Assembly (NCBI GenBank): GCA_964540475.1
Contig: CAZIMC010000001.1
Location: forward strand, 97,203-161,202
Reading direction: 5' to 3'
From: an uncultured Gammaproteobacteria bacterium
GTDB lineage: Bacteria; Patescibacteriota; Microgenomatia; UBA8517
DNA length: 64,000 bases
The first letter of the stretch is position 1, and each line of letters begins with the position of its first letter. A program made the position numbers and the translations under genes. Below are positions 20,619 to 46,131 of this stretch, piece by piece. The notes under the pieces were generated by a model, which searched no databases, was not told the origin of the DNA, and saw only the letters and a program-made list of their open reading frames with translations.

Positions 20619-20630
20619 ACAAGCGTGCAT

Positions 20631-20668: not shown

Positions 20669-20680
20669 TGGGATATAATA

Positions 20681-21226: not shown

Positions 21227-21229
21227 AAA

Positions 21230-21301: not shown

Positions 21302-21306
21302 CACAC

Positions 21307-21391: not shown

Positions 21392-21447
21392 CCGCACAGG
21401 TCGCAATTTGCTTAAAGCAAATTTGGCATGCATTCTATACCCTCCGC

Positions 21448-22125: not shown

Positions 22126-22145
22126 TGGGGTACAATATTAAGTAT

Positions 22146-22574: not shown

Positions 22575-22575
22575 T

Positions 22576-27942: not shown

Positions 27943-28020
27943 TTAGTATTTGATTTGCAAGGCTCCGCCTTACATTATACCAGTTCAAATCTAACTGCCA
28001 CCTGTGATAAACTTAAGGCC

Positions 28021-28401
28021 ATGAAACGGTTTATACTTTTGGGATTTTTATGCACTTGTTTGTTAATAAAGCCCACCAGCTTAATGGCACAAACGCCCCT
28101 AAACGAGGGTGGGTGCACGAATAATTCACTTAACACCGCCATTGGCTGCATTCCAGTTGAGGACACAAATCAATTTATGGGCTACTTACTCGGCTGGGCT
28201 ATTGGAATTGGAGGAGGCATTGCCTTTTTGCTAATTGTTTACGCAGCCTTTATGATAACGACCTCTTCCGGAGTACCGGAACGGCTAAAAGCGGGACAAG
28301 AACTACTAACCTCTGCCTTAATGGGTATAATAATGTTAATATTTTCTGTCTTTATTCTGAGATTTATTGGCGTTGACATATTAAAGATTCCAGGCTTATA
28401 G
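28021..28401 (+). CDS. VirB2/TrbC-like T4SS pilin-family small membrane protein (paralogue 1 of 8)
   Basis: Start taken at MKRF; signal peptide plus two TM helices; conserved SSG...LKAGQELLTSALMGII block shared with the following seven ORFs. Confidence 0.55.
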   Translation: MKRFILLGFLCTCLLIKPTSLMAQTPLNEGGCTNNSLNTAIGCIPVEDTNQFMGYLLGWAIGIGGGIAFLLIVYAAFMITTSSGVPERLKAGQELLTSALMGIIMLIFSVFILRFIGVDILKIPGL

Positions 28402-28414
28402 CCACCATTGTCAA

Positions 28415-28726
28415 ATGATAGACTTTAACCAAATCCAGCAAAATGCAAATGTGGGATTTAAATTTACCAACTCATCAGTTGGACAAATCATAAAAGACAC
28501 AATTCCCTATATCTTTTCTGCGGCGGGCATTGCTGTTTTGATTTATCTAATTGTTGCCGGGTTGCAGCTTATGACTTCCGCTGGCGACCCAAAGGCGGTT
28601 GAATCAGCAAAAGGAAAAGTTACCGGTGCATTGATTGGGTTTGTAGTAATATTTGCATCTTACTGGATTGTACAGCTTCTATCAGCTTTCCTGGGAGTTG
28701 ACAGGGTTGGTGAGCCATTTAACTAG
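28415..28726 (+). CDS. VirB2/TrbC-like pilin-family protein (paralogue 2)
   Basis: SAGDPKAVESAKGKVTGALIGFVVIFASYWIV. Confidence 0.55.
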   Translation: MIDFNQIQQNANVGFKFTNSSVGQIIKDTIPYIFSAAGIAVLIYLIVAGLQLMTSAGDPKAVESAKGKVTGALIGFVVIFASYWIVQLLSAFLGVDRVGEPFN

Positions 28727-28763
28727 CTTTTACATTTTAACCAAGCTGTAATAAAATTGTTAT

Positions 28764-29072
28764 ATGCTTGCACAAGTTGATATAGGCAATACTTATCTCG
28801 GTTCTGGAAGTCAGTTAACAAATTTGTCAAATGTCGGCTCATTTGTTTCACGCATAGTACAGGGATCAATTGCAGTAGCAGGAATTATTCTGGTGTTTCT
28901 TTTTGTGTTCGGAGGTATTAGCATAATTGCATCTGCAGGAAGCGATAACCCACAAGGTGTAGAAAAAGGAAAGCAGGCTATAACCACCGCCCTCTTGGGA
29001 TTTTTGTTAATCTTTGGTGCTTACTGGATTGTTAAGTTGATTGAAATTATTGCAGGAGTTACAATTCTATAA
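28764..29072 (+). CDS. VirB2/TrbC-like pilin-family protein (paralogue 3)
   Basis: SAGSDNPQGVEKGKQAITTALLGFLLIFGAYWIV. Confidence 0.55.
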   Translation: MLAQVDIGNTYLGSGSQLTNLSNVGSFVSRIVQGSIAVAGIILVFLFVFGGISIIASAGSDNPQGVEKGKQAITTALLGFLLIFGAYWIVKLIEIIAGVTIL

Positions 29073-29420
29073 ATGAACCTTATAGCACAAAACCCTTTCG
29101 GAACCATCGCCCCCCCACCGCAAGTTGCCAAATATGGAAGCGTACAGGACGGTGCAATTGGTACTTTTATCAATTTGGCATTAAACGTATTGATAATTGG
29201 CGCCGGTATTTATGCTGTAATCAATCTAGTTTTAGCGGGATATGCATTCATGTCGGCAGGAGATGATCCCAAAAAAGTGGCTGGAGCATGGGCTAAAATA
29301 TGGCAAACTCTGCTGGGCCTGGCTGTTGCGGCTGGTGCCTTTGTTCTGGCGGCGATTTTTGGAAGAATTATTTTTGGCCCAGGGTACGACATTCTTAATC
29401 CGTCAATTCCAACACCATGA
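29073..29420 (+). CDS. VirB2/TrbC-like pilin-family protein (paralogue 4)
   Basis: SAGDDPKKVAGAWAKIWQTLLGLAVAAGAF; start adjoins the stop of the previous gene. Confidence 0.5.
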   Translation: MNLIAQNPFGTIAPPPQVAKYGSVQDGAIGTFINLALNVLIIGAGIYAVINLVLAGYAFMSAGDDPKKVAGAWAKIWQTLLGLAVAAGAFVLAAIFGRIIFGPGYDILNPSIPTP

Positions 29421-29791
29421 TAAATTACCTATTTCAAATACCATTAGCTCCCGGAGGCGGTTTCCGGGGAATAGGTCCCCTTGGTTTGGAAGGATCAGCC
29501 ACCACCGGCGCAGCTAACGTCTTTACCAGGTTTTTATCTATCACCATTGGAATAATGACAATTGTTGCGATAATTTGGTTTATATTTCTTTTTATTGCCG
29601 GTGCATACGGGATAATGAGTTCCGGAGGAGACAAACAAGCACTTGAGGGTGCAAGAAAAAAGATCACGACTGGTTTAATTGGGCTCGTGGTAACTATTGC
29701 TGCTATTTTTATTGTAAACCTGGTAGGTAATTTCATAGGTATACCTAATATTCTAGATATTGAAGCTTTGCTTGACAGAGTCGCGCCATAA
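29417..29791 (+). CDS. VirB2/TrbC-like pilin-family protein (paralogue 5)
   Basis: SSGGDKQALEGARKKITTGLIGLVVTIAAIFIV; ATGA overlap with the upstream gene. Confidence 0.55.
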   Translation: MINYLFQIPLAPGGGFRGIGPLGLEGSATTGAANVFTRFLSITIGIMTIVAIIWFIFLFIAGAYGIMSSGGDKQALEGARKKITTGLIGLVVTIAAIFIVNLVGNFIGIPNILDIEALLDRVAP

Positions 29792-29800
29792 TCAAAACCA

Positions 29801-30157
29801 ATGAACCACGCCTTAATCGCACAAATCAGAAACCCCGCCCTTGGACCTACGCTAGACAACCTTCAGCGCCAGGAAAACTCTGGGGTGGCTTTCTTAAACC
29901 TGTATCTGCCAAAATTTGTTCAATTGGGACTTCTTGTTGGTGCCTTGTTGTTTTTTGCGATGCTCTTGTTCGGGGCAATACAATGGATTTCGTCGGGCGG
30001 CGACAAAGCAGCTCTCGAAACAGCGCGAGGTAGAATTACGAATGCCATCATTGGTCTGGTTGTGCTTTTTTCCGTATTTGCGTTTATTGTGCTAATTGAG
30101 AATTTCTTCGATATCTCGATCCTTCAAATAGACCTGTCCCCTTTTAGAATTAATTAG
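29801..30157 (+). CDS. VirB2/TrbC-like pilin-family protein (paralogue 6)
   Basis: SSGGDKAALETARGRITNAIIGLVVLFSVFAFIVL. Confidence 0.55.
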   Translation: MNHALIAQIRNPALGPTLDNLQRQENSGVAFLNLYLPKFVQLGLLVGALLFFAMLLFGAIQWISSGGDKAALETARGRITNAIIGLVVLFSVFAFIVLIENFFDISILQIDLSPFRIN

Positions 30158-30208
30158 CATTTAGCTCTTGACATTATGATGGGTTGGGCTCGATAATATG
30201 CTTAATAT

Positions 30209-30523
30209 ATGGATACGATAGATTTAACGCCCGGGGGTCAGTTTGATAGATTGGGTACACTTACCATCCCCGGTATAATTTCCGCCCTTATTAGACTTAC
30301 TTTAGTTGTAGCAGCTTTGGTGTTCTTCTTTATTCTCGTCATTGGAGGGATCAGATGGATACTTTCCGGCGGGGATAAGGCACAAACTGAGGCAGCTCGC
30401 AATCAAATAACGGCTGCGCTGGTTGGATTAGTAATTGTTTTTGCTGCATGGGCAATAATTCAACTAGTACAGGTGTTCTTTGGAATCAACATACTGCAGC
30501 TTGATATCCCCACTGCAAATTAA
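30209..30523 (+). CDS. VirB2/TrbC-like pilin-family protein (paralogue 7)
   Basis: SGGDKAQTEAARNQITAALVGLVIVFAAWAIIQL. Confidence 0.55.
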   Translation: MDTIDLTPGGQFDRLGTLTIPGIISALIRLTLVVAALVFFFILVIGGIRWILSGGDKAQTEAARNQITAALVGLVIVFAAWAIIQLVQVFFGINILQLDIPTAN

Positions 30524-30576
30524 TAAACCGCGTTCTTCTTGCTCAATTGTGGCTATTCAGTTAAACTTGTTATTAT

Positions 30577-30882
30577 ATGCCACCACACTGTGCGGATTTT
30601 ACAAGTCGGGACGTTGTGCAGTTGCGCGACCTCGAATGTATTTTTTTTAATCTAGTGAATGTTATTTTGGCATTTGCAGGCATAGTCTTGTTTATTGTAA
30701 TTGTCATAGGTGGATTTAAGTACATAACATCAGGCGGCAACCCCCAATCTGTTGATGGTGCCAAAAAAACTATCACCTATGCCATAGGTGGTGTGGTGCT
30801 TCTAGCGCTAGCATATTTAATCTTGGTTCTGATCAAACAATTCACCGGCGTTGACGTGACAAGATTTCAAATCTACCGCTAA
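30577..30882 (+). CDS. VirB2/TrbC-like pilin-family protein (paralogue 8)
   Basis: SGGNPQSVDGAKKTITYAIGGVVLLALAYLILVL. Confidence 0.55.
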   Translation: MPPHCADFTSRDVVQLRDLECIFFNLVNVILAFAGIVLFIVIVIGGFKYITSGGNPQSVDGAKKTITYAIGGVVLLALAYLILVLIKQFTGVDVTRFQIYR

Positions 30883-30883
30883 C

Positions 30884-33319: not shown

Positions 33320-33361
33320 CGTCCTACACAGACTTAAGTCTGTGGTTTCCTTTAAACAGGA

Positions 33362-34987
33362 TTGTTAGATATTTTTGCTTGTTGTATCATTAAAAGGATT
33401 CCTAAAATGTTTAAAAAATTATTGATATCACTACTCTTGGGTATTGTTTTACTCGCCCCATTTACTGCTGTGGCTCATGCCCAAACAACATGGTACAACC
33501 AGGGTTTCAGCGAGTGGTACTTAAAAGTCTACGATAACAACAATCAATCAGAAATTTTCGGTGAACGCTATACCGCCGCACAAATCCAGTGGATTTATTA
33601 CAGCATCATTTCGTTTGTTATCAACATGATGACGGGGGGCAACACACAACTTGTAAGCTGTGTAATGAGCCCTGACGTGGGCACATGCATTGAAGGTGCG
33701 CTTGAGGCAATTCCATTTGTGGGCAGTTCTAGCCCTAATGGTACGGAAAATTTCTCTGTTGTCTCCGTTTTTTCTAACCGACCAATTTCAGGAGTCGGGT
33801 ATTTACTGAATATCGGCAAAAATCTAAACATTATCCCCGAAGTGCAGGCCCAGGGCTTCGGTTTCCAGGCAGCAAGTCCCGTACTCACTCTTTGGAGGGT
33901 TACAAGAAACATGACTTATGGCCTCCTGATTCTTGTGGTAATTGCAATGGCGTTTATGATTATGTTTAGGGTCAAAATTTCTCCGCAAACAGTTATATCT
34001 GTGCAGTCAGCCCTTCCCCGAGTAGTTCTGGCAATTATTCTTATCACCTTCTCGTACGCTATTGCTGGGTTTTTGATCGATTTAATGTACGTGGTTATAG
34101 GTCTGGTGGCTGCTCTGTTTGCTGGATCTGGACTCCTTTCGGCGCCGTTTAACCAATTTGGAACCATGTTCGGGGCTTTAACCACCGAACGAAACGTCCT
34201 AACATTAATTCTAAATTATTTTATTTCCTTTTTGATTATCTACATGCCAGCCAGCATAACTGGTTGGGAGTCACTGTTAATTGCACCTCTAGCCGCGGCA
34301 ATCTTTCCCCTCGTCTTAATTGTACTCACGGTTGTGCTCATTTTTGTTTTCTTTAGAATTTTCTGGCTACTGCTAAGAACATATGTGACAATCCTTCTCT
34401 TAATCATAGTTGGCCCATTACAGATACTTATTGGTGCAGTTTCAGCTACGGGCGGGTTTGGTCTGTGGTTGCGCAACCTGGCTGCCAATCTTGCTGTATA
34501 CCCCATTGTGGGTGTAATGTTCGTCGTTGCGTTTGTGTTTCTTGGTGCAGCACTAGATGAAAACATTTCATCTGGATTAACTCCGGACTGGGTACGCAAC
34601 GCGATATTGCCGTTTAATGTTGCTTCCGGCGCGTTGGGAGGTAACACCTGGGCGCCCCCTTTGACTTTGGGGGAAAGCCTCCATGGATTATTGTGGCTAG
34701 GGGCAAGTTTTGTCATAATCACCCTTATACCAAGAACCGCAGATATTATTAGAAGCTTCATTCAAGGTCAGGAGTTTGGTTTTGGTACTGCAATCGGCCA
34801 GCAGTTTGCACAGGTTGGAACAGGGGTTGCCATGGGTACGAGAATTGGCCAGGCTGTTATCAACAGAGGTCGCGCAGGTCTCGCAGGGGGTGGGGCAGCT
34901 CCTAACAACGCGGCTGTACCACAGCCAGCAGCACAGGCAGGTGCAGCGGGCGGCGGCGGAGTACCCGGCGGAACTACAACAATTTAG
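33362..34987 (+). CDS. VirB6/TrbL-like polytopic T4SS membrane protein
   Basis: Signal peptide, at least six TM helices, Gly/Ala-rich C-terminal tail (GGGAAPNNAAVPQPAAQAGAAGGGG); position after the pilin array. Confidence 0.5.
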   Translation: MLDIFACCIIKRIPKMFKKLLISLLLGIVLLAPFTAVAHAQTTWYNQGFSEWYLKVYDNNNQSEIFGERYTAAQIQWIYYSIISFVINMMTGGNTQLVSCVMSPDVGTCIEGALEAIPFVGSSSPNGTENFSVVSVFSNRPISGVGYLLNIGKNLNIIPEVQAQGFGFQAASPVLTLWRVTRNMTYGLLILVVIAMAFMIMFRVKISPQTVISVQSALPRVVLAIILITFSYAIAGFLIDLMYVVIGLVAALFAGSGLLSAPFNQFGTMFGALTTERNVLTLILNYFISFLIIYMPASITGWESLLIAPLAAAIFPLVLIVLTVVLIFVFFRIFWLLLRTYVTILLLIIVGPLQILIGAVSATGGFGLWLRNLAANLAVYPIVGVMFVVAFVFLGAALDENISSGLTPDWVRNAILPFNVASGALGGNTWAPPLTLGESLHGLLWLGASFVIITLIPRTADIIRSFIQGQEFGFGTAIGQQFAQVGTGVAMGTRIGQAVINRGRAGLAGGGAAPNNAAVPQPAAQAGAAGGGGVPGGTTTI

Positions 34988-35002
34988 TCGTAACAAAAAC
35001 TG

Positions 35003-37489
35003 CTATTTTTTCCCGCCTCCACCAACTATTTGAGCAACATCAAAAATTAGACCGAAGGCATTAAGAAGTATCTGCCTTCCACGGCTACCTCTTTGGTCAT
35101 TGGTTTGGATAATTTTTCTTGCGTTACTTAAGCTTTTTTCTGCATAATATTTATTGCCTCTGAATATAAGCCCATTTCTTCCTCCAGCCTGGGCTGCCAA
35201 AAAACCAGCTTTTCCATTTAGTTCCGGTCCCCACAGAAACTGCTCAACCTCCATAAAGGGCCTCGCTGCATCCGGTGAGAAAAGAACCTTTGAAGCCTCG
35301 GAGCCAGCATGACGAGCGCTCTCAACAGTTGCTGCTATTGTTTTGCACTCTATGAGTCTCGCGACCATAGCGCCGACTATATGTCTTCCTTCGTCCGGGA
35401 AAACCCCTTCTGCCGTCTTCTTGCTAATTCCTCCATACACTTGTTTAAGCAGGTCCGCTATTGCATCCATGCTGGTAAATGTGTCTTTGGTCCACATAGG
35501 CAAACCGTTAGCCGTTGACCCGCCAAGAGCCGCCCACATAGCGGCATTAAGCCGGTAGTATTTTTTGATACCTTCTACAGCACTTGGTATAACCATTTTG
35601 CCCATCAATGTCCCGTTAAAAACATCCGAGGGCTTAAATGCAGAATCAAAAGCAACCAAAATTACAGAATAGTCACCCTGATAAACCGCTTTCACCCTTC
35701 GAGGCAGAAATGCCGGTTCCAAAACCATTCTGAACGGGTCCCCGCCCCATGACGGCAGAGGTTTCATTCCGTACTCATCCTTGGATTGGGGGTCACCTGC
35801 TCTGGTGAGCAAGTATTCCCACCGTGTGTATTTTTCTGCCAAAAATGCATCACAAGCAAGCTTGGCAGCCACCATGTTCATTTCGTTTTGCTTGTCTGTT
35901 CCTTGAAGAAGTCTTTCATTAATATAGGCATCAAAGCCACCTTTATATGGCCTATCCTGAATTCCATCGCCACGCAAAGTCTTAGTTCTAAGGTAATCAG
36001 CCAAACCACCAGGTGAATTTGCAGTACTAATGCTAAGATTAAATTCGCTAAATGCCCGCGCTTTACCATCATCAAGAAGATCGCCACAATCTCTACCGGC
36101 AGCAACCGTCATTCCTGCATCTTGCAATATCCGTCTGTAATACTGTCGGACAAGAGGAATGCTTATAACCTTTCTATATTTATCGGGATCGTCTGCCAGC
36201 AAATACTCCCGCCAGGTATCTTGCATGTCTAAACTGGGTTCTCTTTCGTTAGCAGGTGTTTGGGTTACAATTTTTGCATAAGAAGTCGCAGAACCAACAG
36301 AAAGCTCCATGGCACGGGCCGGAACAGTCACTGCAATCATGGCAATTAGATCCTTCTTGGTTTCCTCGACTTCTGCCATTTGCTCAGCATTAAGCTTTCC
36401 TCTACGAGCAGCGTCTCCCAAGTCCCCCAGCCATGTGTCAAGCACCCCTTTCCATCTGTCCGCCAACCCCAACTCGTTAAACAGCCTTAAATTGTTAAAC
36501 ACCCACCTATCCCTGTCTTCTTTCTTGCGAATATCTAAAAACTCAACTTCCGTCCAGGCTCTTTCGTACCGTCTATACTTCCCGTCCCGAAACGTCATCG
36601 TAACATAATCTGGCGGCAGAGGCGCTGCCCCGCCGTCTCCACCTTCGCGCGAGTCGCGAATTTGACGATGCATGGCTCGTTCTAATTGAACAGACGCCTT
36701 ATTGTGAAGTTCCTGCAAGGGCGGGTCTTCATAATTAAAAAGCTCAACGGTCCTGTCTAGAAACGGCTGAGGCGGTATCGTGCCATCCTGAGGCAAAACC
36801 CCACCCTCATCGTCCCACGCCTTCATCATATTGTAAAAGGCTGCGTTTCTATATGCCCCAAGAATCCCCTCAAGTCTTTGGTCCCAGCCGCTTAAGCCCC
36901 GCGCCGTTGCTTCATATCTTGAGACGTCTATTCTTCGTATATCTTCTGCTGCTTGTAAAAAATCCTGCTTTCGTTGGATGTCCTCTATCCTTGCCTTTAA
37001 ATCCTCAAACACCCCAATTCTTTTTGCATAACTTCCAAGGACATTAAGTTCTGCTTTTAGTCTCTGCTCTTTTGTCTGGTCGGGGTTCCTTAAAACTTCT
37101 GTTAGCTCGGATATAACGCGCTTAACAGAGCGGGCTCTCCTGTTCAAAACGGGTTCTTCTTCCGGTGCCATAGTTGGAGTTTCTGTTTCAATTTTGCCTT
37201 TTTTATCCTCTTCTTGTATCCGGTCTGCCATGCGTGCCAAATAGGGCGCAACTTGAGGCCAAACCTCGTCGCCTTCTTCAACCGCTTCTTCTCCCCACCT
37301 GGCAGCTCTGTCACTTAACTGATCCGCATTTAGTGTATCTGCAAGTCCAGTTTGGTGAAGCATGGCAATCTTCTTCCCAGCAGTACCCAGCGCCCCGCTT
37401 CTTAAAGCTACGAATTCTTCCTCCGTAGCTACGAGCCACGATGGTTTTTTAAATTCCTCTATTGGTCTTGGTTTATCAGCTTCCGACAT
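35003..37489 (-). CDS. large soluble hypothetical protein encoded antisense within the T4SS-like cluster, locally GC-elevated
   Basis: 828-aa ORF with no TM helix, Walker motif or recognisable catalytic motif. Spot GC counts are about 45-65% versus about 33% in the adjacent pilin genes. Confidence 0.6.
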   Translation of the reverse strand: MSEADKPRPIEEFKKPSWLVATEEEFVALRSGALGTAGKKIAMLHQTGLADTLNADQLSDRAARWGEEAVEEGDEVWPQVAPYLARMADRIQEEDKKGKIETETPTMAPEEEPVLNRRARSVKRVISELTEVLRNPDQTKEQRLKAELNVLGSYAKRIGVFEDLKARIEDIQRKQDFLQAAEDIRRIDVSRYEATARGLSGWDQRLEGILGAYRNAAFYNMMKAWDDEGGVLPQDGTIPPQPFLDRTVELFNYEDPPLQELHNKASVQLERAMHRQIRDSREGGDGGAAPLPPDYVTMTFRDGKYRRYERAWTEVEFLDIRKKEDRDRWVFNNLRLFNELGLADRWKGVLDTWLGDLGDAARRGKLNAEQMAEVEETKKDLIAMIAVTVPARAMELSVGSATSYAKIVTQTPANEREPSLDMQDTWREYLLADDPDKYRKVISIPLVRQYYRRILQDAGMTVAAGRDCGDLLDDGKARAFSEFNLSISTANSPGGLADYLRTKTLRGDGIQDRPYKGGFDAYINERLLQGTDKQNEMNMVAAKLACDAFLAEKYTRWEYLLTRAGDPQSKDEYGMKPLPSWGGDPFRMVLEPAFLPRRVKAVYQGDYSVILVAFDSAFKPSDVFNGTLMGKMVIPSAVEGIKKYYRLNAAMWAALGGSTANGLPMWTKDTFTSMDAIADLLKQVYGGISKKTAEGVFPDEGRHIVGAMVARLIECKTIAATVESARHAGSEASKVLFSPDAARPFMEVEQFLWGPELNGKAGFLAAQAGGRNGLIFRGNKYYAEKSLSNARKIIQTNDQRGSRGRQILLNAFGLIFDVAQIVGGGGKK

Positions 37490-37627
37490 AATAACCCTTC
37501 TGCCTCGAATTATATCAAGTTTGAGGATTTATAACAAAAATACATGTGAAAAAGGGATGTGGTTGCATAAAGCACTTCACGCAGTAACCTAAAAAATAGA
37601 GCAAAAGACTATTTACTAAATAAATAC

Positions 37628-38722
37628 TTGCCAAATATGCAAGAACAGCATCCGATACCACAACAAATAAGCTCTTATCAGTTCAGGCTGGTGGGCGACA
37701 TGACATTAAAACAGTTTTTCCAGCTAGCAGGTGGCGTTATGGTGTCATTGCTTTTTTACGCGTCTCCCCTTCATCCAGCCATCAAGTGGCCATTTATAAT
37801 TCTTTTTGTTCTTCTGGGTATTGCTCTTGCATTTTTACCTTTTGAGGAGCGGCCATTGGAAAAATGGATTTTAGCATTTTTCCGTTCTATTTACTCCCCA
37901 ACCATCTTTGGCTGGAGCAAGGCACAGATTCCCGTTAAATATTTTCAGGAGGAAGCGGTGTCTCAGCTTGCTCCACAATTTGTTGCCCCACAGGGGAACG
38001 ACACACTTAACGCGTATCTTGCAACTCCTACCACTCACACCACCAGTTTTAGACAACTTGAGCATTCAGAGCAGACTTTTCTTACTAGAATGGGAGACCT
38101 TTTTGCACCCGGAAGTCCCCAAAAGGGAGTCGTTAGTTTGCCTGTTGCCACACAAAACCCACAGACCCCACCACCCCCAGCACAAACCAGCAACATTGGG
38201 AGCACGCAAATTCCGCAAACCCCATTGATTAAAGCGGTCGGAGAAAACAGGACCCGAGTTGTGGTTGAAGAAACTGCTCTGCCACCAGATGTTCAACAAG
38301 CAGCCGTAAGTGAGACTATACAAGCTGCCCCACCACAAGTACAGGTGTCAGAACAGGCTATTTTTTCAACCGAAGCCGCTCCACCACACCCGCCAACTAT
38401 CCCCAACACAATTTCTGGGCAGGTTATGGACCCTGATGGAAAGATTGTTGAGGGGGCAATTCTTGAGATTCGTGATGTAAGCGGAAGGCCGGTAAGAGCA
38501 CTTCGGTCTAACAAGCTGGGTCATTTTCTGATTGTCACCGCCCTGCTTAACGGAGCATACGAAATCATAACAGAAAAGGACGGCCTCGAGTTCAAGCCGG
38601 TTTCTTTTGAAACCACTGGAGGAATTGTACCCCCAATTGCCATTAAGGCTGTCGCGAGAAACACACCCCCTCCTGTAGCAGAAAGTCCAACACCCAATAC
38701 AGCTCAGGTGGCAACCATATAA
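37628..38722 (+). CDS. PrgI/VirB3-like T4SS protein with Pro-rich linker and C-terminal CarboxypepD_reg-like beta domain
   Basis: N-terminus QFRLVGDMTLKQFFQLAGGVMVSLLFY...PFEERPLEKWILAFFRSI (PrgI-family pattern). C-terminal ISGQVMDPDGKIVEGAILEIRDVSGRPV. Confidence 0.5.
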   Translation: MPNMQEQHPIPQQISSYQFRLVGDMTLKQFFQLAGGVMVSLLFYASPLHPAIKWPFIILFVLLGIALAFLPFEERPLEKWILAFFRSIYSPTIFGWSKAQIPVKYFQEEAVSQLAPQFVAPQGNDTLNAYLATPTTHTTSFRQLEHSEQTFLTRMGDLFAPGSPQKGVVSLPVATQNPQTPPPPAQTSNIGSTQIPQTPLIKAVGENRTRVVVEETALPPDVQQAAVSETIQAAPPQVQVSEQAIFSTEAAPPHPPTIPNTISGQVMDPDGKIVEGAILEIRDVSGRPVRALRSNKLGHFLIVTALLNGAYEIITEKDGLEFKPVSFETTGGIVPPIAIKAVARNTPPPVAESPTPNTAQVATI

Positions 38723-38730
38723 AAAAGGAC

Positions 38731-39393
38731 ATGCTAAAAATTCCCATACTCTCAACCCCGGATACCCCCTTGACTGCACCAACACAGCATCATCTGCCAA
38801 TTGCAGATATAACCGACGACATTGTGCTTTTCAAAGACGGAGGAGCAGCGGTTGTTATGGAGTCCTCATCCCTTAACTTTAGTCTTCTTTCAGAAAAGGA
38901 GCAGCAGGCTGTTATTGCCGCCTATGCTGCACTACTTAATTCGCTTTCCTTTGCAATTCAAATTGTTATTCGCACCCAACGTAAAGACATCAGTTCATAC
39001 ATTCACTATCTGGACGAGGCGGCCAGCAAAATCACGAACCCAAAAATGGCAACAGTCATGCAAGGATACCGAAGGTTCATTGTTGAGTCTATTAAGAAAA
39101 AGAACGTTTTGGGTAAAAAGTTTTACATCGTAGTTCCCTTTAGCCCGTTGGAACTCGGAATAACAAAGTCTTTCTTTTCAGCCACCAAAAAGGGGGGTCC
39201 TCTTCCTTTTACAAAATCTTACATTGTCAAAAAGGCAAAAGTAGTTCTCTACCCCAGACGAGACCATCTAATTCGTCAAACAGGAAGGCTTGGTCTTAAA
39301 TTAAGACAGCTTACCACTAACGAACTTGTCGAAACTTACTACACAATTTTTAACCCTGAGCTGCCTGCAGTTAAGAAGGAGGAGGGAGTGTAA
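38731..39393 (+). CDS. VirB4 N-terminal-domain-like protein (separate ORF immediately upstream of VirB4)
   Basis: PIADITDDIVLFKDGGAAVVMESSSLNFSLLSEKEQQAVIAAYAALLNSLSFAIQIVIR resembles N-termini of Gram-positive VirB4 (PrgJ/TcpF-type). Stop overlaps the next start as TAATG. Confidence 0.45.
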   Translation: MLKIPILSTPDTPLTAPTQHHLPIADITDDIVLFKDGGAAVVMESSSLNFSLLSEKEQQAVIAAYAALLNSLSFAIQIVIRTQRKDISSYIHYLDEAASKITNPKMATVMQGYRRFIVESIKKKNVLGKKFYIVVPFSPLELGITKSFFSATKKGGPLPFTKSYIVKKAKVVLYPRRDHLIRQTGRLGLKLRQLTTNELVETYYTIFNPELPAVKKEEGV

Positions 39394-41360
39394 TGAAACT
39401 TAATCTGCCATTTTTAAAGAAAAAAGATACTCAAAATACTGGCCAAACTGTAGTTAATTATATTCCGCCAATCCAAACCAAGCCGACTGCACCATCTGTT
39501 ACCACCACAAATACTGTGCCACCAATCCCCCACACACACCATACCTCGCAACCTCAGTCAAACCAAGCCATAAATTTAGCGGGGCAAGGGTCGCTAGCTA
39601 ACAAGCCAAAGATCTTAAGCCCCACTTTAAGTTTGTACCAAAAACAACTTTCCGTTCAAGACGTTATTGCTCCCCAAGCAAGTGAAATTGATTTTGACTA
39701 TTTTAAGGTAAACGATGTGTATTTTAGGACTCTTTTTATCGCCGGCTACCCTCGGTTTGTCTCTCCTGGGTGGCTAGAGCCAGTGATCAACTTTGACAGT
39801 TCACTGGATATATCTTTTTATATATATCCAGTTGAGGGGAAATCTGTATTAGACGATTTAAGACGTAAAATTGCAGAGATGGAGGCTGAGATTGGTACGG
39901 ATCTTGAGCGCGGAAGGATTGTTGATCCAGGAACACAGGCCAAGCTCGAAGATGCCAGAGCACTACAAGAACAGCTTGTTAAGGGTATAGAGAGATTTTA
40001 TGAGTTTTCATTTTACATAACAATTCCTGCTCCCAGTGTTGAAGAGCTTAATAGAATTACCAAAGAGGTTGAAAGTGTTTTGTCCTCACTTTTGATTGTT
40101 GGAAAACAAGCTCTCTTAGATATGGACAGCGGTTTTTTGTCATCAGCCCCACTGGGTATGGACAGGTTATCAATCACCAGGAACATGGACACAACATCTC
40201 TTGCAACCACTTTTCCGTTAACCTCTGCTGAGCTTTCGTCCGATAAAGGTGTTCTTTATGGTATTAACTCCGAAAATGAATCATTTATTATTTTTGACCG
40301 CTACTCGCTTGAGAACTATAACATGGCAATTTTTGCGACTTCAGGTGCAGGTAAAAGCTTTTTTGTTAAGCTTGAAGCACTTAGGAGTCTATTGCTTGGA
40401 GCTGAGGTTATTATTATTGACCCAGAGAATGAGTACAAATCAATTAGCGACGCCGTGGGCGGAGAATATATTTCATTCTCATTCACCTCCCCTGCTAAAA
40501 TAAATCCATTCGATCTTTCTCAAATCTACGAGGAAGGCGAAAACCAGCTGGGACTTAAAATACTTTCTCTTCACTCGCTATTCAAAGTAATAATGGGTCA
40601 GATCACGCCCTCACAAGAAGCACTGCTGGACCGAGCTATTGTGGGTGCATACCGCGCTAAAGGTATAACAACCGATCCCGAAACACAAAAAAATGAACCC
40701 CCACTAATGGAAGACCTGTATAAAACTTTAGTTGGCATGGAAAGTGCTGAGGCAATGGATCTGGCGGCCCGGCTTGAGAAGTTTGTAAAGGGTAGTTATG
40801 TGGGAATCTTTGATAAACAAACTAATATCGACCTCAAAAATCCATTTACTGTTTTTTCGGTTCGGGACATGCAGGATGCGCTTCGTCCTATCGCAATGTT
40901 TATTATTCTTGATTACATTTGGACAAGAGTCAAAAAAGACCTCAAGAAACGCCTCCTAATCGTCGATGAGGCCTGGCATATGATGAAATACCCAGATACC
41001 GCATCTTTTCTCTGGATGGTCGTTAAACGGGCAAGAAAGTACTTTTTAGGCTTAACAACAATTACACAGGATGTTGAAGATTTTTTGGCACAAGATATTG
41101 GTAAGGCTATCGTTACCAATTCGGCTATGAAACTCCTCCTGAAACAGTCTCCAGCCGCAATAGATAGAATTGGTGAAGTTTTCTACCTTTCTCAGGGAGA
41201 AAAACAACTTTTGTTGGCTGCAAATGTCGGGGAGGGTATATTTTTTGCCGGCCCTCACCATGCCCCGATCAGGGTGGTCGCATCAGAAGAAGAACACAGG
41301 CTTATGACAACCAAGCCACAGGAAGTGATGGTTCAAAAACCAAATGGCCAACAATATTGA
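39393..41360 (+). CDS. VirB4/TraE-family T4SS ATPase
   Basis: Walker A IFATSGAGKSFFVK; Walker B LLIVDEAWHMM; VirB4-type N-domain FRTLFIAGYPRFV; 655 aa. Confidence 0.8.
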   Translation: MKLNLPFLKKKDTQNTGQTVVNYIPPIQTKPTAPSVTTTNTVPPIPHTHHTSQPQSNQAINLAGQGSLANKPKILSPTLSLYQKQLSVQDVIAPQASEIDFDYFKVNDVYFRTLFIAGYPRFVSPGWLEPVINFDSSLDISFYIYPVEGKSVLDDLRRKIAEMEAEIGTDLERGRIVDPGTQAKLEDARALQEQLVKGIERFYEFSFYITIPAPSVEELNRITKEVESVLSSLLIVGKQALLDMDSGFLSSAPLGMDRLSITRNMDTTSLATTFPLTSAELSSDKGVLYGINSENESFIIFDRYSLENYNMAIFATSGAGKSFFVKLEALRSLLLGAEVIIIDPENEYKSISDAVGGEYISFSFTSPAKINPFDLSQIYEEGENQLGLKILSLHSLFKVIMGQITPSQEALLDRAIVGAYRAKGITTDPETQKNEPPLMEDLYKTLVGMESAEAMDLAARLEKFVKGSYVGIFDKQTNIDLKNPFTVFSVRDMQDALRPIAMFIILDYIWTRVKKDLKKRLLIVDEAWHMMKYPDTASFLWMVVKRARKYFLGLTTITQDVEDFLAQDIGKAIVTNSAMKLLLKQSPAAIDRIGEVFYLSQGEKQLLLAANVGEGIFFAGPHHAPIRVVASEEEHRLMTTKPQEVMVQKPNGQQY

Positions 41361-44300
41361 TACAAATAAGCTAACCGGTAAGTTTTTTCTTACAGCTGAA
41401 CTGGTTGCTGAATTAAGAAGACTCTGCGAGAGCTTTAATCCGGTAGAATTGTTGGGTGAGGGCTATCCTTTTATAAATAAGGCAGAGATCCCCGAACTCG
41501 GCTATAAATGGAATAGCCGCTCCGAATTTAACCAAGATATTTTTAATCTTACTGGGAAAAACACTATTAAAGAAGCCCATAGAATTTTGTATGAATGGGA
41601 AAGTGCTCTCTCAAGTGGCGCTCCAGTTGACGAAACTGTTCCCAAAAAAGATCGTCTAGACCAACTAGAGAAAGAGGCAGAAGAAAGACAAAAGGCTGCC
41701 CAGGAAGCAAAAGGCCGCGCTGAAACACAAACGCGGGAGCAAATTGAAAGACTCGAAGAAAAAGCCGCTAGGGAGCGTGTGCGCGCCTCGGACCAGAAGC
41801 CTACCACCGATGTTAATTCTGTTCCGTCGGAAGCTGGATCAACCCCTCTAACTAGAGAGCAGACAAGTCAACCACCTGCAATTAACCCAACCATTTCTTC
41901 AATGCCCTCCACACAACCCGGGGAGATTGGTGTGTCACCGATTACTGATAAAGCAGTGAAGGAAACTCAAAAAATGGTTGCTTCAAATGAGCGACCCGCA
42001 GCTTCTCCGGCTCAATCAACAACCCCCACGCCTATAGGCACCGAAGTTAGCCTAAGTCCCTCAGAACAAAGACGTATCGTTTACCTTGAACCAAAAGAAT
42101 CGCCTGGGCCAGTAAAGCTCAGTGCACAAGAACAGGTTGCAAAAGAACGGCTGGAAGTTTCTGCCAGACAAAACCCTAGATTGTTTGTACAAACAATCTC
42201 CAGCAAAATAGAGAATAACCTTAGTAAAATCCCAGACCCTGCCATTAAGGAGTATGTAACAACACTGCCCAAACCCGAGCTTAAAGCTGCAATAAACAAT
42301 GTTGCCGCAGACTTTACAACCAGACTCTTAATGGGAAATCAGCTGTCAACCGTGCCGTCAGGTGTTTATGCTTCCATGCTTAACTCCGATGACATACCAG
42401 GAGTCCTAAAAAGTGAGGCATTGCCTGCTCTTGCAATAGTAACAGCTTCGTCCGAAGACACGGTGAGGCAGCTCTTAACACCCACTCTTGGCGCTAACCT
42501 AACTGAATTTTTCTACCAGAAACCAGACATTACCTACATAGTATCGACAGAACCCTCAGAGCGAACAACTCATCAAGTTTCGTTGGGTGGCATCGCAGAT
42601 AGCTGGAACGCTTTTAGACAAAACCCAATTGCAGGATTTGTGGAAGGAAAGGCTAAAGAAAAGATTTTAGGAATTGCCCAACAAAGATTCAACACTTTTA
42701 TTGGGAAACTGCCAGCACAGGGCGGGTTAAGTTTCGTTTCAAGGTTTGCCTCCTCGTCAGGAATCAGTTCAGCACTGTCTTACATTGCGGCACCTGCCAC
42801 CCAATACCAAGTAACATCGTCTCTCGGGTGGGTTATTCGCAGTGCTGCCCCGGAAATGGTTCCGGTATTCACAAATCTTGCTGGGAGGATTGGTATAAAT
42901 ATCGGTTTTGGGGCTATAAACACTCTAGCTCCGGTAGCTGCAACAACCCTGGAAGTTGGAGCAGTAACCGCAGTAACAACAACTGCGACTGGAACAGGAG
43001 CGGCGGTTGCTACTAGTGCTGCGGCTACAGCGGCTGGTACAGCAATCGGAGAAGCCGCAGGTGTCGCAGCAGGAACTGCAGCAGCTACGGCAACTGGCAC
43101 TGCAGCAGGTGTATCAGCAGGAGCTGCTGCTGGGTCAGTTGCCCCCATAGTGGGAACGGCTATAGGGGCAATTGTTGGCTTCGTTGCTGGCAAATTACTC
43201 CCTAAAGTCTTGTCGTGGCTCAAGCGAAACAAAAGCACCGCCGTTATATTAGCCTCCTTACCACTAGCTACGGGGGTATTTATAGGGTCTATTCCCCTAA
43301 TTCTTTTCGGCACTGTGTTTGCAATCGGTTTTACAGCAGCAACTGTAGGTGGGGCAAGTCTGTTAACTGGAGGCGTTGGGGGTTTCTTTGGAGGAATATT
43401 TAATGGTTTTTTTGGTCTGGTATTAAAGTCAATTGCAATCCCTTTCATTGTTTCTATTTTGGGATTAGCCGTAAGTATCGCCCTTATTATGTTTATTATT
43501 AATTCCGGCGCATATATTGTTCCCCCACATACAAGCACTGCAATTGAGATAGACCAAAGTCCTTATATTAACGTTTCGAAAGTTGCAAGTGTCACCAATC
43601 TCTCAAACAGCCAACTTACTCCAGCTACGGTTAACTACACGGTTACAATTTCTGCCCCTTTGGGAACAATTTCAAACATATCTTTTAAAAATGAATGTGT
43701 GGTTACTAAATCAGGATCAATACCGCCATGCACTCCCCCACTCCCAAATACTGTTCCGGAAACAATAGGTCCAGCAGAACCGTATGTCTTCACCTATTCT
43801 CAAGAATTTGATTCATCGTTTGCAAACAGTCTCGTTGCTGACACCTTCAGTGTTACAGCCGACGCTCCGGATGCCGCAACGCAAACCTCTATTTCAACCG
43901 CCTCAATTGTCATAGGAAGTCCTCCAACCAGCTGTTTTGAAGTTGTGGGTAGCAACTGGCCTGCTAATCACAAAGCAAATATTATGTCCGCAATTGCAAC
44001 TCTTAGTAGCTCATTCCCAACCTATACAGCTAAAGTTTGTGCAGCTGGAACGGTGAGGCTTGTGTACGATACAACAAAGAATCCCGGTGGTTGGGGTTAC
44101 TACAGCGGAAGAACAATCTACTTTAACGGAGGAGGCTTAAATAGCGCAATCAATGCGCTTTACATTTTTTCCCACGAAACTGGACATCATGTACAATCTG
44201 TCTCATTCGCCTCACTAATGGTTTATTACTTAAATAACTTTGTTGGCTTAGCTCAAGAAAGACCTCTTTGTTCATATGTTAACACAGGCAATCCGTACGA

Positions 44301-44433
44301 AGCGTTCGCTGAAGCTATTGCACTTTTTGTAACACGCGATCAATCATCTCAGTGGAAAAACAAATGTTCTGGGACCTTCCAAACTACCTATCCAAGGCAC
44401 TATAATTTTGCTGAGACAGTGATTTTTAAATAA
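41344..44433 (+). CDS. large T4SS-associated membrane protein with coiled coil, Pro/Thr-rich linker, Ala/Gly-rich TM region and C-terminal HExxH-containing domain
   Basis: 1029 aa; IFSHETGHHV near the C-terminus; multiple TM helices around residues 540-700. Confidence 0.55.
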   Translation: MANNIDTNKLTGKFFLTAELVAELRRLCESFNPVELLGEGYPFINKAEIPELGYKWNSRSEFNQDIFNLTGKNTIKEAHRILYEWESALSSGAPVDETVPKKDRLDQLEKEAEERQKAAQEAKGRAETQTREQIERLEEKAARERVRASDQKPTTDVNSVPSEAGSTPLTREQTSQPPAINPTISSMPSTQPGEIGVSPITDKAVKETQKMVASNERPAASPAQSTTPTPIGTEVSLSPSEQRRIVYLEPKESPGPVKLSAQEQVAKERLEVSARQNPRLFVQTISSKIENNLSKIPDPAIKEYVTTLPKPELKAAINNVAADFTTRLLMGNQLSTVPSGVYASMLNSDDIPGVLKSEALPALAIVTASSEDTVRQLLTPTLGANLTEFFYQKPDITYIVSTEPSERTTHQVSLGGIADSWNAFRQNPIAGFVEGKAKEKILGIAQQRFNTFIGKLPAQGGLSFVSRFASSSGISSALSYIAAPATQYQVTSSLGWVIRSAAPEMVPVFTNLAGRIGINIGFGAINTLAPVAATTLEVGAVTAVTTTATGTGAAVATSAAATAAGTAIGEAAGVAAGTAAATATGTAAGVSAGAAAGSVAPIVGTAIGAIVGFVAGKLLPKVLSWLKRNKSTAVILASLPLATGVFIGSIPLILFGTVFAIGFTAATVGGASLLTGGVGGFFGGIFNGFFGLVLKSIAIPFIVSILGLAVSIALIMFIINSGAYIVPPHTSTAIEIDQSPYINVSKVASVTNLSNSQLTPATVNYTVTISAPLGTISNISFKNECVVTKSGSIPPCTPPLPNTVPETIGPAEPYVFTYSQEFDSSFANSLVADTFSVTADAPDAATQTSISTASIVIGSPPTSCFEVVGSNWPANHKANIMSAIATLSSSFPTYTAKVCAAGTVRLVYDTTKNPGGWGYYSGRTIYFNGGGLNSAINALYIFSHETGHHVQSVSFASLMVYYLNNFVGLAQERPLCSYVNTGNPYEAFAEAIALFVTRDQSSQWKNKCSGTFQTTYPRHYNFAETVIFK

Positions 44434-44438
44434 TAAAT

Positions 44439-45032
44439 ATGGAAAAATTATCATATTACGTCCAAAATAAGAAATGGCTAGTATTTGTTGCACTTCTTGG
44501 AGTTTTACTTATCCTAAGTTTTTTCTTTTTAGCAAAACCTTCTCCAGTACCACCTCCCCCTCAATCTAATGAAGGACTAACGTACAATTCACTTACACCT
44601 GGAGTATCAACTAAAAGCGATGTTTTAAATACTCTAGGAAATCCCCAAGAGGAAGCACAGAGCGAAGGGTCTACTCTCTTGACATTTGAAACAGACAATA
44701 CATCAAGACCAATTGAAATTTATATTCAAAATGATAGTGTTCAGTTAATAAAAGAAGTCATACCGTTCGATGATGAAAGAAGATCAGATACGATTCGTAA
44801 AAGATATGGAAATGCCGATCTGGTAATGTATGGTGAAGGTGCTGTTGCGGATTTTTATCTCTTTGTATACCTAAAGCAAGGTATAGCATATATTGGTAAT
44901 ACCAATTCCGGTAATCTGCTTGAGATTTGGTACTTTTCTCCAACTAATGAAACGACTTTTGTGAATACGTGGGCAAAAAGTTATTCACGAACCCTACCAG
45001 AACCCCATGCGGACACTATCCTTGAATTCTGA
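44439..45032 (+). CDS. N-terminally anchored membrane protein (possible VirB8/PrgL-like; weak)
   Basis: 197 aa; single N-terminal TM helix then a soluble domain; last gene of the cluster. Confidence 0.4.
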   Translation: MEKLSYYVQNKKWLVFVALLGVLLILSFFFLAKPSPVPPPPQSNEGLTYNSLTPGVSTKSDVLNTLGNPQEEAQSEGSTLLTFETDNTSRPIEIYIQNDSVQLIKEVIPFDDERRSDTIRKRYGNADLVMYGEGAVADFYLFVYLKQGIAYIGNTNSGNLLEIWYFSPTNETTFVNTWAKSYSRTLPEPHADTILEF

Positions 45033-46131
45033 CTGGCATTATCAAATGAAGGTAGTTTGCATCTGTTGGGTCCAAAAAGACACCCGGTGAATCGGTATCT
45101 GAAAGCTCCATTCTTATGTCGCTTGAGTTTGTTGAGTGTAGAAACTCCTCTAAGAATTTATAGTTAAACGCAATCTCAAAATTATTATCACTTTCAACTC
45201 CTTCAACTTTTGCCTCAACCGAGGTTTCTTGTGTCCCTGAAGACGGGCTCTCAGCAAAGATACCCAATGAATGTTTACCTACCTTAATTTTAATAATATT
45301 TGCTGCATCGCGGGCAATTGCTGATGAAATCTTTACTGCTCGAACCAACTCTTCCCGACCAACCAAAACCTTGTATTTAGTGGTTTTTGGAATTATTTTT
45401 TCAAAGTCTGGAAAATTTCCTTCAATAATTCTCGACGACAAAACCAAATCCTCGTTTCCAAACAACACCTGATTGTCTTTAGACTTAAAATTCATTAAAA
45501 TCTCTTCTTGCCCTTCAAACAATTTAGCTACTTCCAGGATTGCACCTCTGGGTAAGTTTATTTGCCCCTCAAATGATTCACTACTTGCAATTCTTTTCTG
45601 TGACAACCTAAAACCGTCGGTTGCGACCATTAGAATGCTATTTTTATCATGAAGCATTAAAATACCAGTCAGGACCGGCCTAGTTTCGTCGGTTGAGCAA
45701 GCAAAAACCACTTGGGGAATAGACTTTAAAAACTCACCGTTAGTGAGTTTAATTACATTATCGCTACCCACCACTTCTGGTACTTTGGGATAGTCTGACG
45801 AGTTCATTCCAAGTAATGTAGAACTAAAACCATCCTTTTGAAGACTTAATTGCTCCTTTTCTGATGCAATATTTATTCCACCCGGGGTTAAATTATTTAC
45901 TATCTCTGTTATTACCTTAGACGGTACAGTTATTTCCCCTTCTTCTTCAATCTTACCTGCTAATTTAACTACTACTGAAATTTCTAAATTTGTAGACGCT
46001 AGTAAGAATTTTGTCTTACGAGCAGACAATAATGTGTTCCCAAGTACAGGCAGCTGTGCCTTGGAACTACTGAATCTGGATGTAATACTAAGTGCTTTTG
46101 CGAAATTTTCCTGTAGTAATTTAACTTTCAT
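45016..46131 (-). CDS. dnaN: DNA polymerase III beta sliding clamp DnaN
   Basis: 371 aa; N-terminus MKVKLLQENFAKALSITSRF...LPVLGNTLL; sits downstream of dnaA. Confidence 0.85.
   Translation of the reverse strand: MKVKLLQENFAKALSITSRFSSSKAQLPVLGNTLLSARKTKFLLASTNLEISVVVKLAGKIEEEGEITVPSKVITEIVNNLTPGGINIASEKEQLSLQKDGFSSTLLGMNSSDYPKVPEVVGSDNVIKLTNGEFLKSIPQVVFACSTDETRPVLTGILMLHDKNSILMVATDGFRLSQKRIASSESFEGQINLPRGAILEVAKLFEGQEEILMNFKSKDNQVLFGNEDLVLSSRIIEGNFPDFEKIIPKTTKYKVLVGREELVRAVKISSAIARDAANIIKIKVGKHSLGIFAESPSSGTQETSVEAKVEGVESDNNFEIAFNYKFLEEFLHSTNSSDIRMELSDTDSPGVFLDPTDANYLHLIMPVRIQG

Follow-up and report, generated by a model that had tools for sequence, protein, structure and literature searches.

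The 64,000-nucleotide stretch of contig CAZIMC010000001.1 analyzed here, referred to throughout as the window, carries a gene cluster for a type IV secretion system (T4SS) in which a single large gene runs antisense to all the others. Its product, which we label X828 after its 828 amino acids, is encoded between a VirB6-like gene and the gene for the VirB3 homologue PrgI, an interval that we call the slot. This slot is filled in every related locus with both flanks, and profile and BLAST comparisons portray its occupants as mosaics: an N-domain and a mid region may be present or absent, and the C-terminal module is drawn from at least five or six unrelated kinds. The slot proteins may be substrates of this T4SS, i.e., polymorphic effectors, a reading that we favor and that we judge to fall a little short of an even chance.

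The slot gene and its product

The features of the gene and of the encoded protein are the following.

35003..37489, minus strand: slot gene X828, an ATG-started open reading frame (ORF) of 828 codons; the product is soluble, highly charged and mostly alpha-helical and consists of N-domain, mid region and type-A C-domain
37202..37456, minus strand: N-domain, residues 12-96, acidic, about four helices, motif KPSWL...GTxGKKIAM...LNADQLSDRAxxWGEEAVEEGDEVW
36620..37132, minus strand: mid helical region, residues ~120-290, common to L012, L006, L009, L026 and others, whose C-terminal modules differ
35006..36616, minus strand: type-A C-terminal domain, residues 292-828, with SARAMExSxG, AAKLACDAFL, TRWEY, WGGDPxRxxLEPxFLPR, VYGG and GxHIVGxMxAR
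35006..35155, minus strand: C-terminal tail, last 50 residues, net charge +6, with the Arg cluster RGSRGR followed by an amphipathic/hydrophobic helix and the end GGGGKK
37509..37537, minus strand: predicted sigma-70-like promoter, TTGTTA-17-TATAAT with extended -10 (TGaTATAAT), matching 10 of 12 consensus positions, ~20 nt upstream of the ATG
37495..37501, minus strand: Shine-Dalgarno-like AGAAGGG read from the sequence, 5 nt before the ATG

The first-pass annotation of the window, made from its letters alone, had described this gene as lying antisense between VirB6 and VirB3 and its product as a soluble, acidic and Arg-rich protein devoid of Walker and relaxase motifs, and on each of these points it holds up. 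From 27955 to 45032 the gene is the sole one on the minus strand, with the rest of the credible genes there on the plus strand, and it is flanked by the gene for a polytopic VirB6-like protein (33362-34987) and that for the PrgI/VirB3 homologue (37628-38722; Pfam PF12666). X828 has neither a transmembrane (TM) segment nor a signal peptide, the highest Kyte-Doolittle score over 19 residues being 1.60, at the extreme C-terminus; its isoelectric point of 5.9 is mildly acidic and Arg accounts for 8.0% of its residues. Regular-expression scans found no Walker A or HUH motif, nor HExxH, His-triad, other nuclease or Walker A/B nucleoside triphosphatase (NTPase) motifs, and none of the 5 His and 3 Cys residues is conserved in the type-A family. 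Whether the query was full-length X828 or a profile of its C-domain or N-domain, searches of Pfam, NCBIfam, PHROG, PADLOC and the PDB sequences returned nothing significant. The only Pfam match of X828, to DUF7748, scores 21.7 bits, below the cutoff of 25, and just 1 of the 34 aligned family members shows it; no Pfam or NCBIfam model of a canonical T4SS component (VirB4, VirD4, VirB11, VirB6, VirB8, VirB3, relaxases) is matched. No paralogue was found elsewhere in the window, and the 15 bp between the gene and the convergent VirB6-like gene contain no terminator that could be detected.

That the frame is spurious, a long ORF arising by chance antisense to something else, is extremely improbable. 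Nothing speaks for it except the missing annotation, and it is excluded by homologues with E-values down to 1e-130 over a frame of 828 codons, by ratios of nonsynonymous to synonymous substitution rates (omega) of 0.16-0.51 in orthologue pairs, by a co-evolution signal sufficient for an AlphaFold2 (AF2) model with a predicted local distance difference test score (pLDDT) of 86, and by the predicted promoter and Shine-Dalgarno sequence that precede the ATG. It is firmly supported, on sequence-derived grounds, that the gene is native to the genome, forms an expression unit of its own with its predicted promoter, is under selection, and stands locally for a class of soluble modular proteins specific to the T4SS slot.

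A slot that is always filled

A minus-strand ORF of 440-1180 aa that converges on the VirB6-like gene is present in 35 of 35 loci of Microgenomates and Woesebacteria in which the positions of the VirB6-like gene and of PrgI were both established, and the same arrangement is seen at L001, L083 and L085, loci that were reached through homologues of X828. The sequence around P0003 (L002) is too short for its context to be read. A metagenome scan with the C-domain profile provided 20 more loci, which were pooled with L083-L085. Among the loci of the type-A family a convergent VirB6-like gene is found in all 18 that extend downstream, and PrgI lies divergently upstream in 15. The gene downstream of a slot gene is always the convergent VirB6-like gene, and the slot is bounded by the pilin/811-aa/VirB6-like operon on one side and the PrgI/TrsD/VirB4 operon on the other. 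As a class the slot proteins are alike in that 37 of 38 lack a signal peptide or TM segment, with ~16% acidic and ~15% basic residues. The slot gene family appears to be specific to Microgenomates/Woesebacteria.

The gene in the window had at first been taken for inserted cargo, with its conservation inside the cluster of all relatives named beforehand as the observation that would speak against this. Such conservation is what we find: the inserted-cargo reading is refuted because the slot is occupied in every related locus with both flanks (35 of 35, and 18 of 18 for the type-A family). The alternative offered at the same time, a cluster-associated soluble component to which no function was assigned, is supported. 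A plasmid or phage origin is likewise rejected. The type-A family was seen nowhere else than in this slot, which it occupies in 18 of 18 metagenomic loci that include the downstream flank, and tblastn and a search of viral contigs did not find it on plasmids, phages or viral contigs, with zero matches in each case. Although the slot is always filled, its occupant is often non-orthologous between loci.

Several variations on the arrangement were noted. Some loci hold extra small genes within the slot interval. In the more distant, Shapirobacteria-type loci L059-L077 the VirB6-like gene and the large slot gene were not detected and a pair of minus-strand ORFs (~300 aa and ~370-430 aa) is found instead, just upstream of PrgI. 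In L070 and L078-L080, from a deeper branch of Microgenomates, a minus-strand ORF of ~1000-1180 aa is followed by plus-strand ORFs of ~950-1000 aa and ~200-220 aa and then by PrgI; the slot is thus expanded there. Genes of the 23S_rRNA_IVP / bAvd family flank PrgI beside the slot gene in one lineage (L083, 167-577 and 1844-2155; L084, 820-1131). Those in L083 prompted the hypothesis of a diversity-generating retroelement (DGR), which was rejected since the 64-kb window contains no template/variable repeats of the DGR type, nor any repeat that involves the X828 gene.

Occupants assembled from modules

A word-indexed search of 5.8 billion proteins returned two relatives of X828 and a word-indexed profile search 5 family members, while an exhaustive search of 1.84 billion proteins with a hidden Markov model (HMM) retrieved 133 cluster representatives of the type-A family, which is thus rare, most of them matching at profile positions ~292-829. 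The comparisons below draw on an alignment of 34 type-A sequences (A2) and one of 37 slot-protein homologues (A3). For the type-A module no Pfam, PDB-sequence, PHROG or PADLOC match was found, and on these profile comparisons the type-A C-domain is a new family.

The two modules that precede it are distributed differently. According to iterated HMM searches the N-domain occurs in 9 proteins only, being 46-50% identical in P0002 and P0003, fused to at least three different C-terminal modules and internal in P0093; it has no Pfam or PDB match. The mid region occurs in 42 proteins by the same kind of search, 19 of them without a type-A C-domain. In the BLAST map the N-terminus of X828 is common to P0002, P0003 and L012, and among the genome loci its C-domain is shared by L042, P0002 and L026 only. 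Recombined forms are readily recognized: in L012 an N-terminal/mid segment that is 37% identical to residues 17-287 of X828 is joined to a type-B C module, present also in L044, L018 and L009, and in P0003 the N-domain is joined to a type-C module, present also in L019, L027 and L037. The type-A HMM matches 4 of 46 slot proteins, and in hhalign comparisons types B and C are linked, as are E and F, and type A is linked to none. That all slot proteins belong to one hyper-divergent family is unsupported at the HMM or hhalign level beyond these two links, and the idea was dropped.

Among proteins of at least 450 aa, writing N, M and C for the three modules, the architectures are C-only (66), M-C (18), N-M-C (3, including X828), M with another C (19) and N with another C (4), so that X828, as aligned here, has the rare N-M-C(type A) form. 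Neither the N nor the mid module is obligatory: of the 89 proteins with a full type-A C-domain, 42 carry at most 60 residues before it. The combination of shared modules with interchangeable C-terminal ones is that looked for in polymorphic toxins and effectors.

In the 34-sequence alignment the type-A domain has four nearly invariant Tyr and no conserved His or Cys. The tyrosines would suit a protein of a new kind that processes or pilots DNA, standing in functionally for a relaxase or VirE2 and accompanying DNA through an apparently relaxase-less T4SS. So would the large size, solubility, modular build and basic tail of a protein encoded inside a conjugation-derived locus, and PMC12102498 raises the possibility that the Candidate Phyla Radiation (CPR) has very different relaxases yet to be discovered. 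We nevertheless regard such a function as very unlikely. HUH, His-triad and other nuclease motifs are absent, as are conserved His or Cys residues and matches in Pfam and the PDB, no repeat resembling an origin of transfer (oriT) was found near the X828 gene, and a catalytic core would not be expected to consist, as here, of modules without homology from one lineage to the next.

Divergence, selection and recombination

Close orthologue pairs give omega values for the slot gene of 0.16-0.21 (L096 versus L097 and L101) and 0.51 (L099 versus L100), compared with 0.05-0.06 for VirB4, so that the slot gene is a real gene under purifying but relaxed selection. Synonymous divergence (dS) between L096 and L097 varies greatly along the locus, from 0.13 in the slot gene through 0.48 in PrgI, 0.96 in VirB4 and 1.5 in VirB6 to 2.1 in the 811-aa gene, and this mosaic, noted also for L099 versus L100, indicates segment-wise recombination inside these chromosomal T4SS loci. 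Slot protein and VirB6 are evolutionarily decoupled, given that the former is 95% and the latter 48% identical between L096 and L097; in the pair L099 and L100 the values are 94% and 99.8%.

Over longer distances identities are 30-43% for the type-A domain, 29-50% for VirB6, 29-58% for the 811-aa exported protein, 66-80% for VirB4 and 46-73% for TrsD. By this measure the type-A domain diverges at the pace of the envelope components, unlike the cytoplasmic VirB4 and TrsD. At L042, VirB4, PrgI and VirB6 are 66%, 36% and 32% identical to those of the window, yet the type-A C-domain is 42% identical, and loci with a VirB4 ~80% identical to that of the window carry other C modules. Judged by these identities, module type does not track the VirB4 tree and cassettes are replaced over long time scales. 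The X828 gene itself looks native to its genome.

The first-pass annotation had placed the GC content of the gene at about 45-65% and that of the pilin genes at about 33%, neither of which survives measurement. The gene has 47.1% GC in a window of 41.9%, with single 100-bp windows between 37% and 60%, and the pilin genes have 38.5-46.0% (mean of 100-bp windows, 42%). A local deviation does exist, the X828 ORF standing at z = 1.9 and at the 97.7th percentile among 2487-bp windows, but it does not set the gene apart, its neighbors being similarly raised (PrgI 47.8%, VirB6-like 45.8%, 811-aa gene 44.7%, 1029-aa gene 45.3%). The excess sits in codon position 1 (56.9%), because of an amino acid composition rich in Ala, Gly, Asp, Glu and Arg. 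GC content at codon position 3 (GC3) is 41.7%, versus 40.3-43.5% in the neighbors, and in synonymous codon usage the gene is the least deviant of all, ranking 25th of 25 among window genes of at least 250 aa. Sliding GC, GC3 and codon usage all led us to reject a compositional signal of horizontal gene transfer, and with it the proposal of a horizontally acquired cargo gene bearing a compositional mark. The X828 gene bears no signature of recent foreign origin.

These data bear on whether the slot is a mere recombination hotspot between two conserved operons that collects accessory genes unrelated to the T4SS, such as defence, selfish or cargo genes, the horizontally acquired cargo of the first-pass annotation among them. 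Slot content that is non-orthologous between close relatives, the frequent recombination evident in the mosaic dS, the extra small genes in the interval at some loci and the bAvd / 23S-rRNA-IVP genes beside PrgI in L083 would all be explained in this manner. Even so, we think it unlikely. No anomaly in composition or codon usage accompanies the gene; the occupants resemble one another in size class, orientation, solubility, the share of acidic and of basic residues and the positive charge of their C-termini; different C modules have N and mid modules in common; the type-A family was found only in this slot (18 of 18) and not on plasmids, phages or viral contigs; and PADLOC and PHROG matches are lacking, as are DGR-type repeats in the window.

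Predicted structure of the type-A domain

The AF2 model of the type-A domain has a pLDDT of 86.2 and a predicted template modeling score of 0.87, and the last 15 residues of X828 fall below a pLDDT of 50. The model of full-length X828, computed from an alignment of 3 sequences, is unusable (pLDDT 37.8). Foldseek searches with the type-A model gave best E-values of 0.49 against the PDB and 0.34 against BFVD, with TM-scores of at most 0.18, and the top matches, none of them significant, are generic alpha-solenoids. A confidently predicted structure with no counterpart in Pfam, the PDB or BFVD makes the type-A domain a candidate new fold.

Substrate or part of the machine

Four observations lead us to favor a T4SS substrate. 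The protein has no Sec signal and yet diverges as quickly as the parts exposed in the envelope; replacement and recombination of its modules do not follow those of the machine; the class carries basic C-termini; and the cassette is polymorphic at a fixed position, as effectors are in type VI and type VII secretion (T6SS and T7SS) loci. The slot protein would be made in the cytoplasm from its own promoter and recognized by the VirB4/TrsD/PrgI/VirB6 translocon, plausibly via the basic tail at its C-terminus, via the N and mid modules, or via both. Export would follow, through the VirB2-like pilus or along it, with the cell surface or the host bacterium that the epibiont needs as destination, and the variable C-terminal module would carry the activity, being exchanged between lineages as hosts differ. 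In its full form the proposal is that slot proteins are translocated substrates of the Patescibacterial T4SS, a polymorphic, module-swapping effector family with folds not seen before that ultrasmall epibionts deliver into their hosts, in which the C-module sets a host-specific activity and the tail and/or the N and mid modules serve as export signal without a coupling protein encoded in the locus; this we put forward tentatively, as one that may hold in perhaps a third of possible worlds. The suggestion in the first-pass annotation of an effector-like gene therefore loses its compositional grounds and gains plausibility from the modular, polymorphic occupants, the envelope-like evolutionary pace and the basic C-termini of the class.

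A considerable number of findings weigh against export as a substrate. Strict single copy and a fixed position and orientation would be looked for in a machine part rather than in cargo. No recognizable toxin or enzyme was found among the C-modules with Pfam or, for type A, with Foldseek, no Pfam domain is present in the 37 homologues of alignment A3 or, above threshold, in X828, and no immunity-like gene adjoins the slot genes, only 15 bp separating the gene from the VirB6-like gene in the window. Pfam and NCBIfam searches detect no VirD4-type coupling protein encoded in the cluster. Omega over the whole slot gene is below 1. In Southlakia, which has the only genetically studied CPR T4SS, co-directional membrane proteins take the place of the antisense soluble gene, SEML1_0011, a membrane protein with a helical C-terminal domain, being at the equivalent position. 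The tails weigh on both sides. Over their last 25 residues slot proteins carry a mean net charge of +2.6, compared with +0.5 in 782 neighboring ORFs (Mann-Whitney p = 9e-8), and +1.8 at the level of 25 homology groups, in statistics whose sequences are not fully independent; for X828 itself the value is only +2, which 31% of the control ORFs reach. The hydrophobic moment of the tails is slightly enriched (p = 6e-4), which fits membrane anchoring equally well, and no defined Arg motif is conserved among them.

Much of this would be accommodated if X828 were a cytoplasmic accessory of the machine, i.e., a peripheral-membrane scaffold, an adaptor, or a stand-in for a coupling or recruiting factor or for the soluble domain of an extended VirB6, docked at the inner face of the translocon via a basic amphipathic helix. 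Position, copy number and orientation are constant in every locus examined, the slot gene is under purifying selection, no further protein of the cluster besides X828, VirB4 and TrsD is soluble, and the slot protein's basic, amphipathic tail resembles membrane-targeting helices. A vacancy could exist, a VirD4 or VirB8 homologue being unrecognizable in the cluster with Pfam and NCBIfam and in the account of PMC12102498. Furthermore, SEML1_0011, encoded before prgI in Southlakia, is an essential membrane protein with an ARM-like helical domain at its C-terminus, and the non-significant top Foldseek matches of the type-A domain are alpha-solenoids. Set against this, a part that touches the conserved VirB4 and TrsD should not swap unrelated modules or fall to 30-40% identity where VirB4 remains at ~80%, the slot protein is decoupled from VirB6 in both pairs of loci compared above (L096/L097 and L099/L100), and NTPase motifs are absent. 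We consider such an accessory role the main rival, somewhat less probable than the substrate reading, which we retain as the one preferred.

The surrounding secretion cluster

The remaining genes of the cluster, all on the plus strand, are the following.

27955..30882, plus strand: array of eight paralogous VirB2-like T4SS pilins, with PF18895 matches; the same array is present in L001
30884..33319, plus strand: 811-aa Cys-rich exported protein, conserved in the cluster, with no family match in Pfam, NCBIfam, PHROG or PADLOC
33362..34987, plus strand: VirB6-like polytopic membrane protein of 541 aa with many hydrophobic segments, its stop 15 bp from the stop of X828 and convergent with it; conserved beside the slot
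37628..38722, plus strand: PrgI/VirB3 homologue (PF12666, 27.4 bits, and PF13620), divergent from the X828 gene across a 138-bp intergenic region
38731..39393, plus strand: TrsD-like protein of 220 aa, a free-standing VirB4 N-terminal domain (NCBIfam TrsD and VirB4 N-terminal matches)
39393..41360, plus strand: VirB4-type ATPase of CD1110 / MPF-FATA type (NF045971, 377 bits; PF19044)
41344..44433, plus strand: 1029-aa membrane protein with a C-terminal HExxH motif (SHETGHH), conserved downstream of VirB4

A gene for a 197-aa protein closes the cluster after the 1029-aa gene, and dnaN and dnaA follow at 45-47.7 kb. By its gene content the cluster is a chromosomal, dnaA-proximal, relaxase-less, MPF-FATA-like T4SS of the Patescibacteria (CPR), whose VirB4 is 54-81% identical to that of 80 loci from metagenome-assembled genomes of Woesebacteria, Microgenomates and Shapirobacteria. 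The soluble proteins that it encodes are X828, VirB4 and TrsD only, and no VirB8 homologue is recognizable in it with Pfam or NCBIfam. The VirB6-like label derives from topology and position, as the 541-aa protein has no Pfam match even at E = 1.

A number of further observations were made on these genes. The PrgI/VirB3 homologue is unusually long (364 aa), with a Pro/Gln-rich linker and a C-terminal CarboxypepD_reg-like (immunoglobulin-like) domain that is also present in the PrgI neighbor of P0137. VirB4 is split into the TrsD-like gene and the ATPase gene, which overlap by one base. The 1029-aa protein has an Ala/Gly/Thr-rich multi-TM region and HExxH in the context FSHETGHH and, with no family match in Pfam or NCBIfam, may be a metallopeptidase; its position resembles that of SEML1_0007 of Southlakia, a hypothetical protein whose best structural match is a peptidase. 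On the other side of the pilin array and divergent from it lies a gene for a SpoIID-domain protein with an N-terminal coiled coil (26203-27942, minus strand), found at the same place in L001 and with a homologue upstream in L054, which may be a cell-wall-remodeling (VirB1-like) partner of the T4SS. The cluster (27955-45032) abuts dnaN-dnaA (45016-47704) and the apparent origin, as reported for CPR, with the minimum of the cumulative GC skew at ~46-47 kb. The plus-strand T4SS operons are head-on to the leftward replication fork, with which the X828 gene, dnaN and dnaA are co-directional. Farther away, 19236-22944 holds four tRNA-Ser genes (GGA, TGA, GCT, CGA), a tRNA-Arg(GCG) gene and a tmRNA gene with the tag APAYAGVSNYAFA, and a 72-nt direct repeat, 90% identical, spans the 3' end of two minus-strand tRNA-Ser genes (GGA, TGA) and ~40 nt of downstream flank.

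Comparison with known systems

A chromosomal MPF-FATA-like T4SS of Patescibacteria was described by Quinonero-Coronel et al. in 2025 (PMC12102498), and Wang et al. showed in 2023 that Southlakia requires its T4SS (PMC10633639). The cluster in the window is the same system, with a monoderm-type VirB4, a free TrsD, PrgI/VirB3, an array of VirB2-like pilins, no relaxase and a location beside dnaN-dnaA (PMC12102498, PMC10633639); the split VirB4 with free-standing TrsD was also already known for CPR (PMC12102498). VirD4-type coupling proteins are absent from some T4SSs, for example Ptl of B. pertussis and VirB of Brucella (PMC12102498). CPR T4SSs lack relaxases and have been proposed to serve protein export or another role other than DNA transfer, with no known substrate (PMC12102498, PMC10633639, PMC12857230). 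The sections and passages of PMC12102498 and PMC10633639 that were consulted make no mention of a large gene for a soluble protein that runs antisense in the interval from VirB6 to PrgI. While the surrounding T4SS is already known, the class of slot genes and the type-A family have no match in Pfam, NCBIfam, the PDB sequences, PHROG or PADLOC and, to that extent of the two articles, have not been described.

The significance of the slot proteins derives from the fact that the T4SS is essential for epibiotic growth in the one tractable CPR species, yet has neither a relaxase nor a known substrate (PMC10633639, PMC12102498, PMC12857230). A soluble, polymorphic class resident in the locus and evolving like a surface- or host-exposed component offers a concrete candidate substrate, or else a lineage-specific part of the machine. 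Beyond this, the chromosomal T4SS loci compared here emerge as recombination mosaics.

Among parts of secretion machines, the extended VirB6 and TraG-type hydrophilic domains and SEML1_0011/0013 of Southlakia are like the slot protein in being large helical soluble domains at or beside VirB6, just before VirB3/PrgI, that vary between systems. Among substrates, several that are secreted by T4SSs have positively charged C-terminal signals, examples being VirE2, VirF and VirD2 of Agrobacterium. These resemble the slot proteins in being soluble, in lacking a Sec signal and in having a basic, poorly ordered C-terminus, and they differ in that a VirD4 receptor is not encoded in the CPR cluster and no Arg motif is conserved there; the charge enrichment of the slot proteins is modest in size and could also reflect a helix that binds membranes.

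Polymorphic effector cassettes occupy fixed positions in a number of secretion loci, including those linked to vgrG/PAAR in T6SS, the LXG/EsaD toxins beside essC in T7SSb and the X-Tfe with XVIPCD of the Xanthomonas T4SS. Unlike these, the slot has no recognizable toxin domain and no adjacent immunity gene, its N and mid modules are optional, and Pfam and Foldseek gave no similarity in sequence or fold between slot proteins and LXG, PAAR, MIX or XVIPCD. By analogy, the slot may nonetheless be organized along the same lines, since it combines a conserved position and polymorphic content with shared and interchangeable modules and with exchange that is incongruent with the phylogeny of the machine, as those cassettes do.

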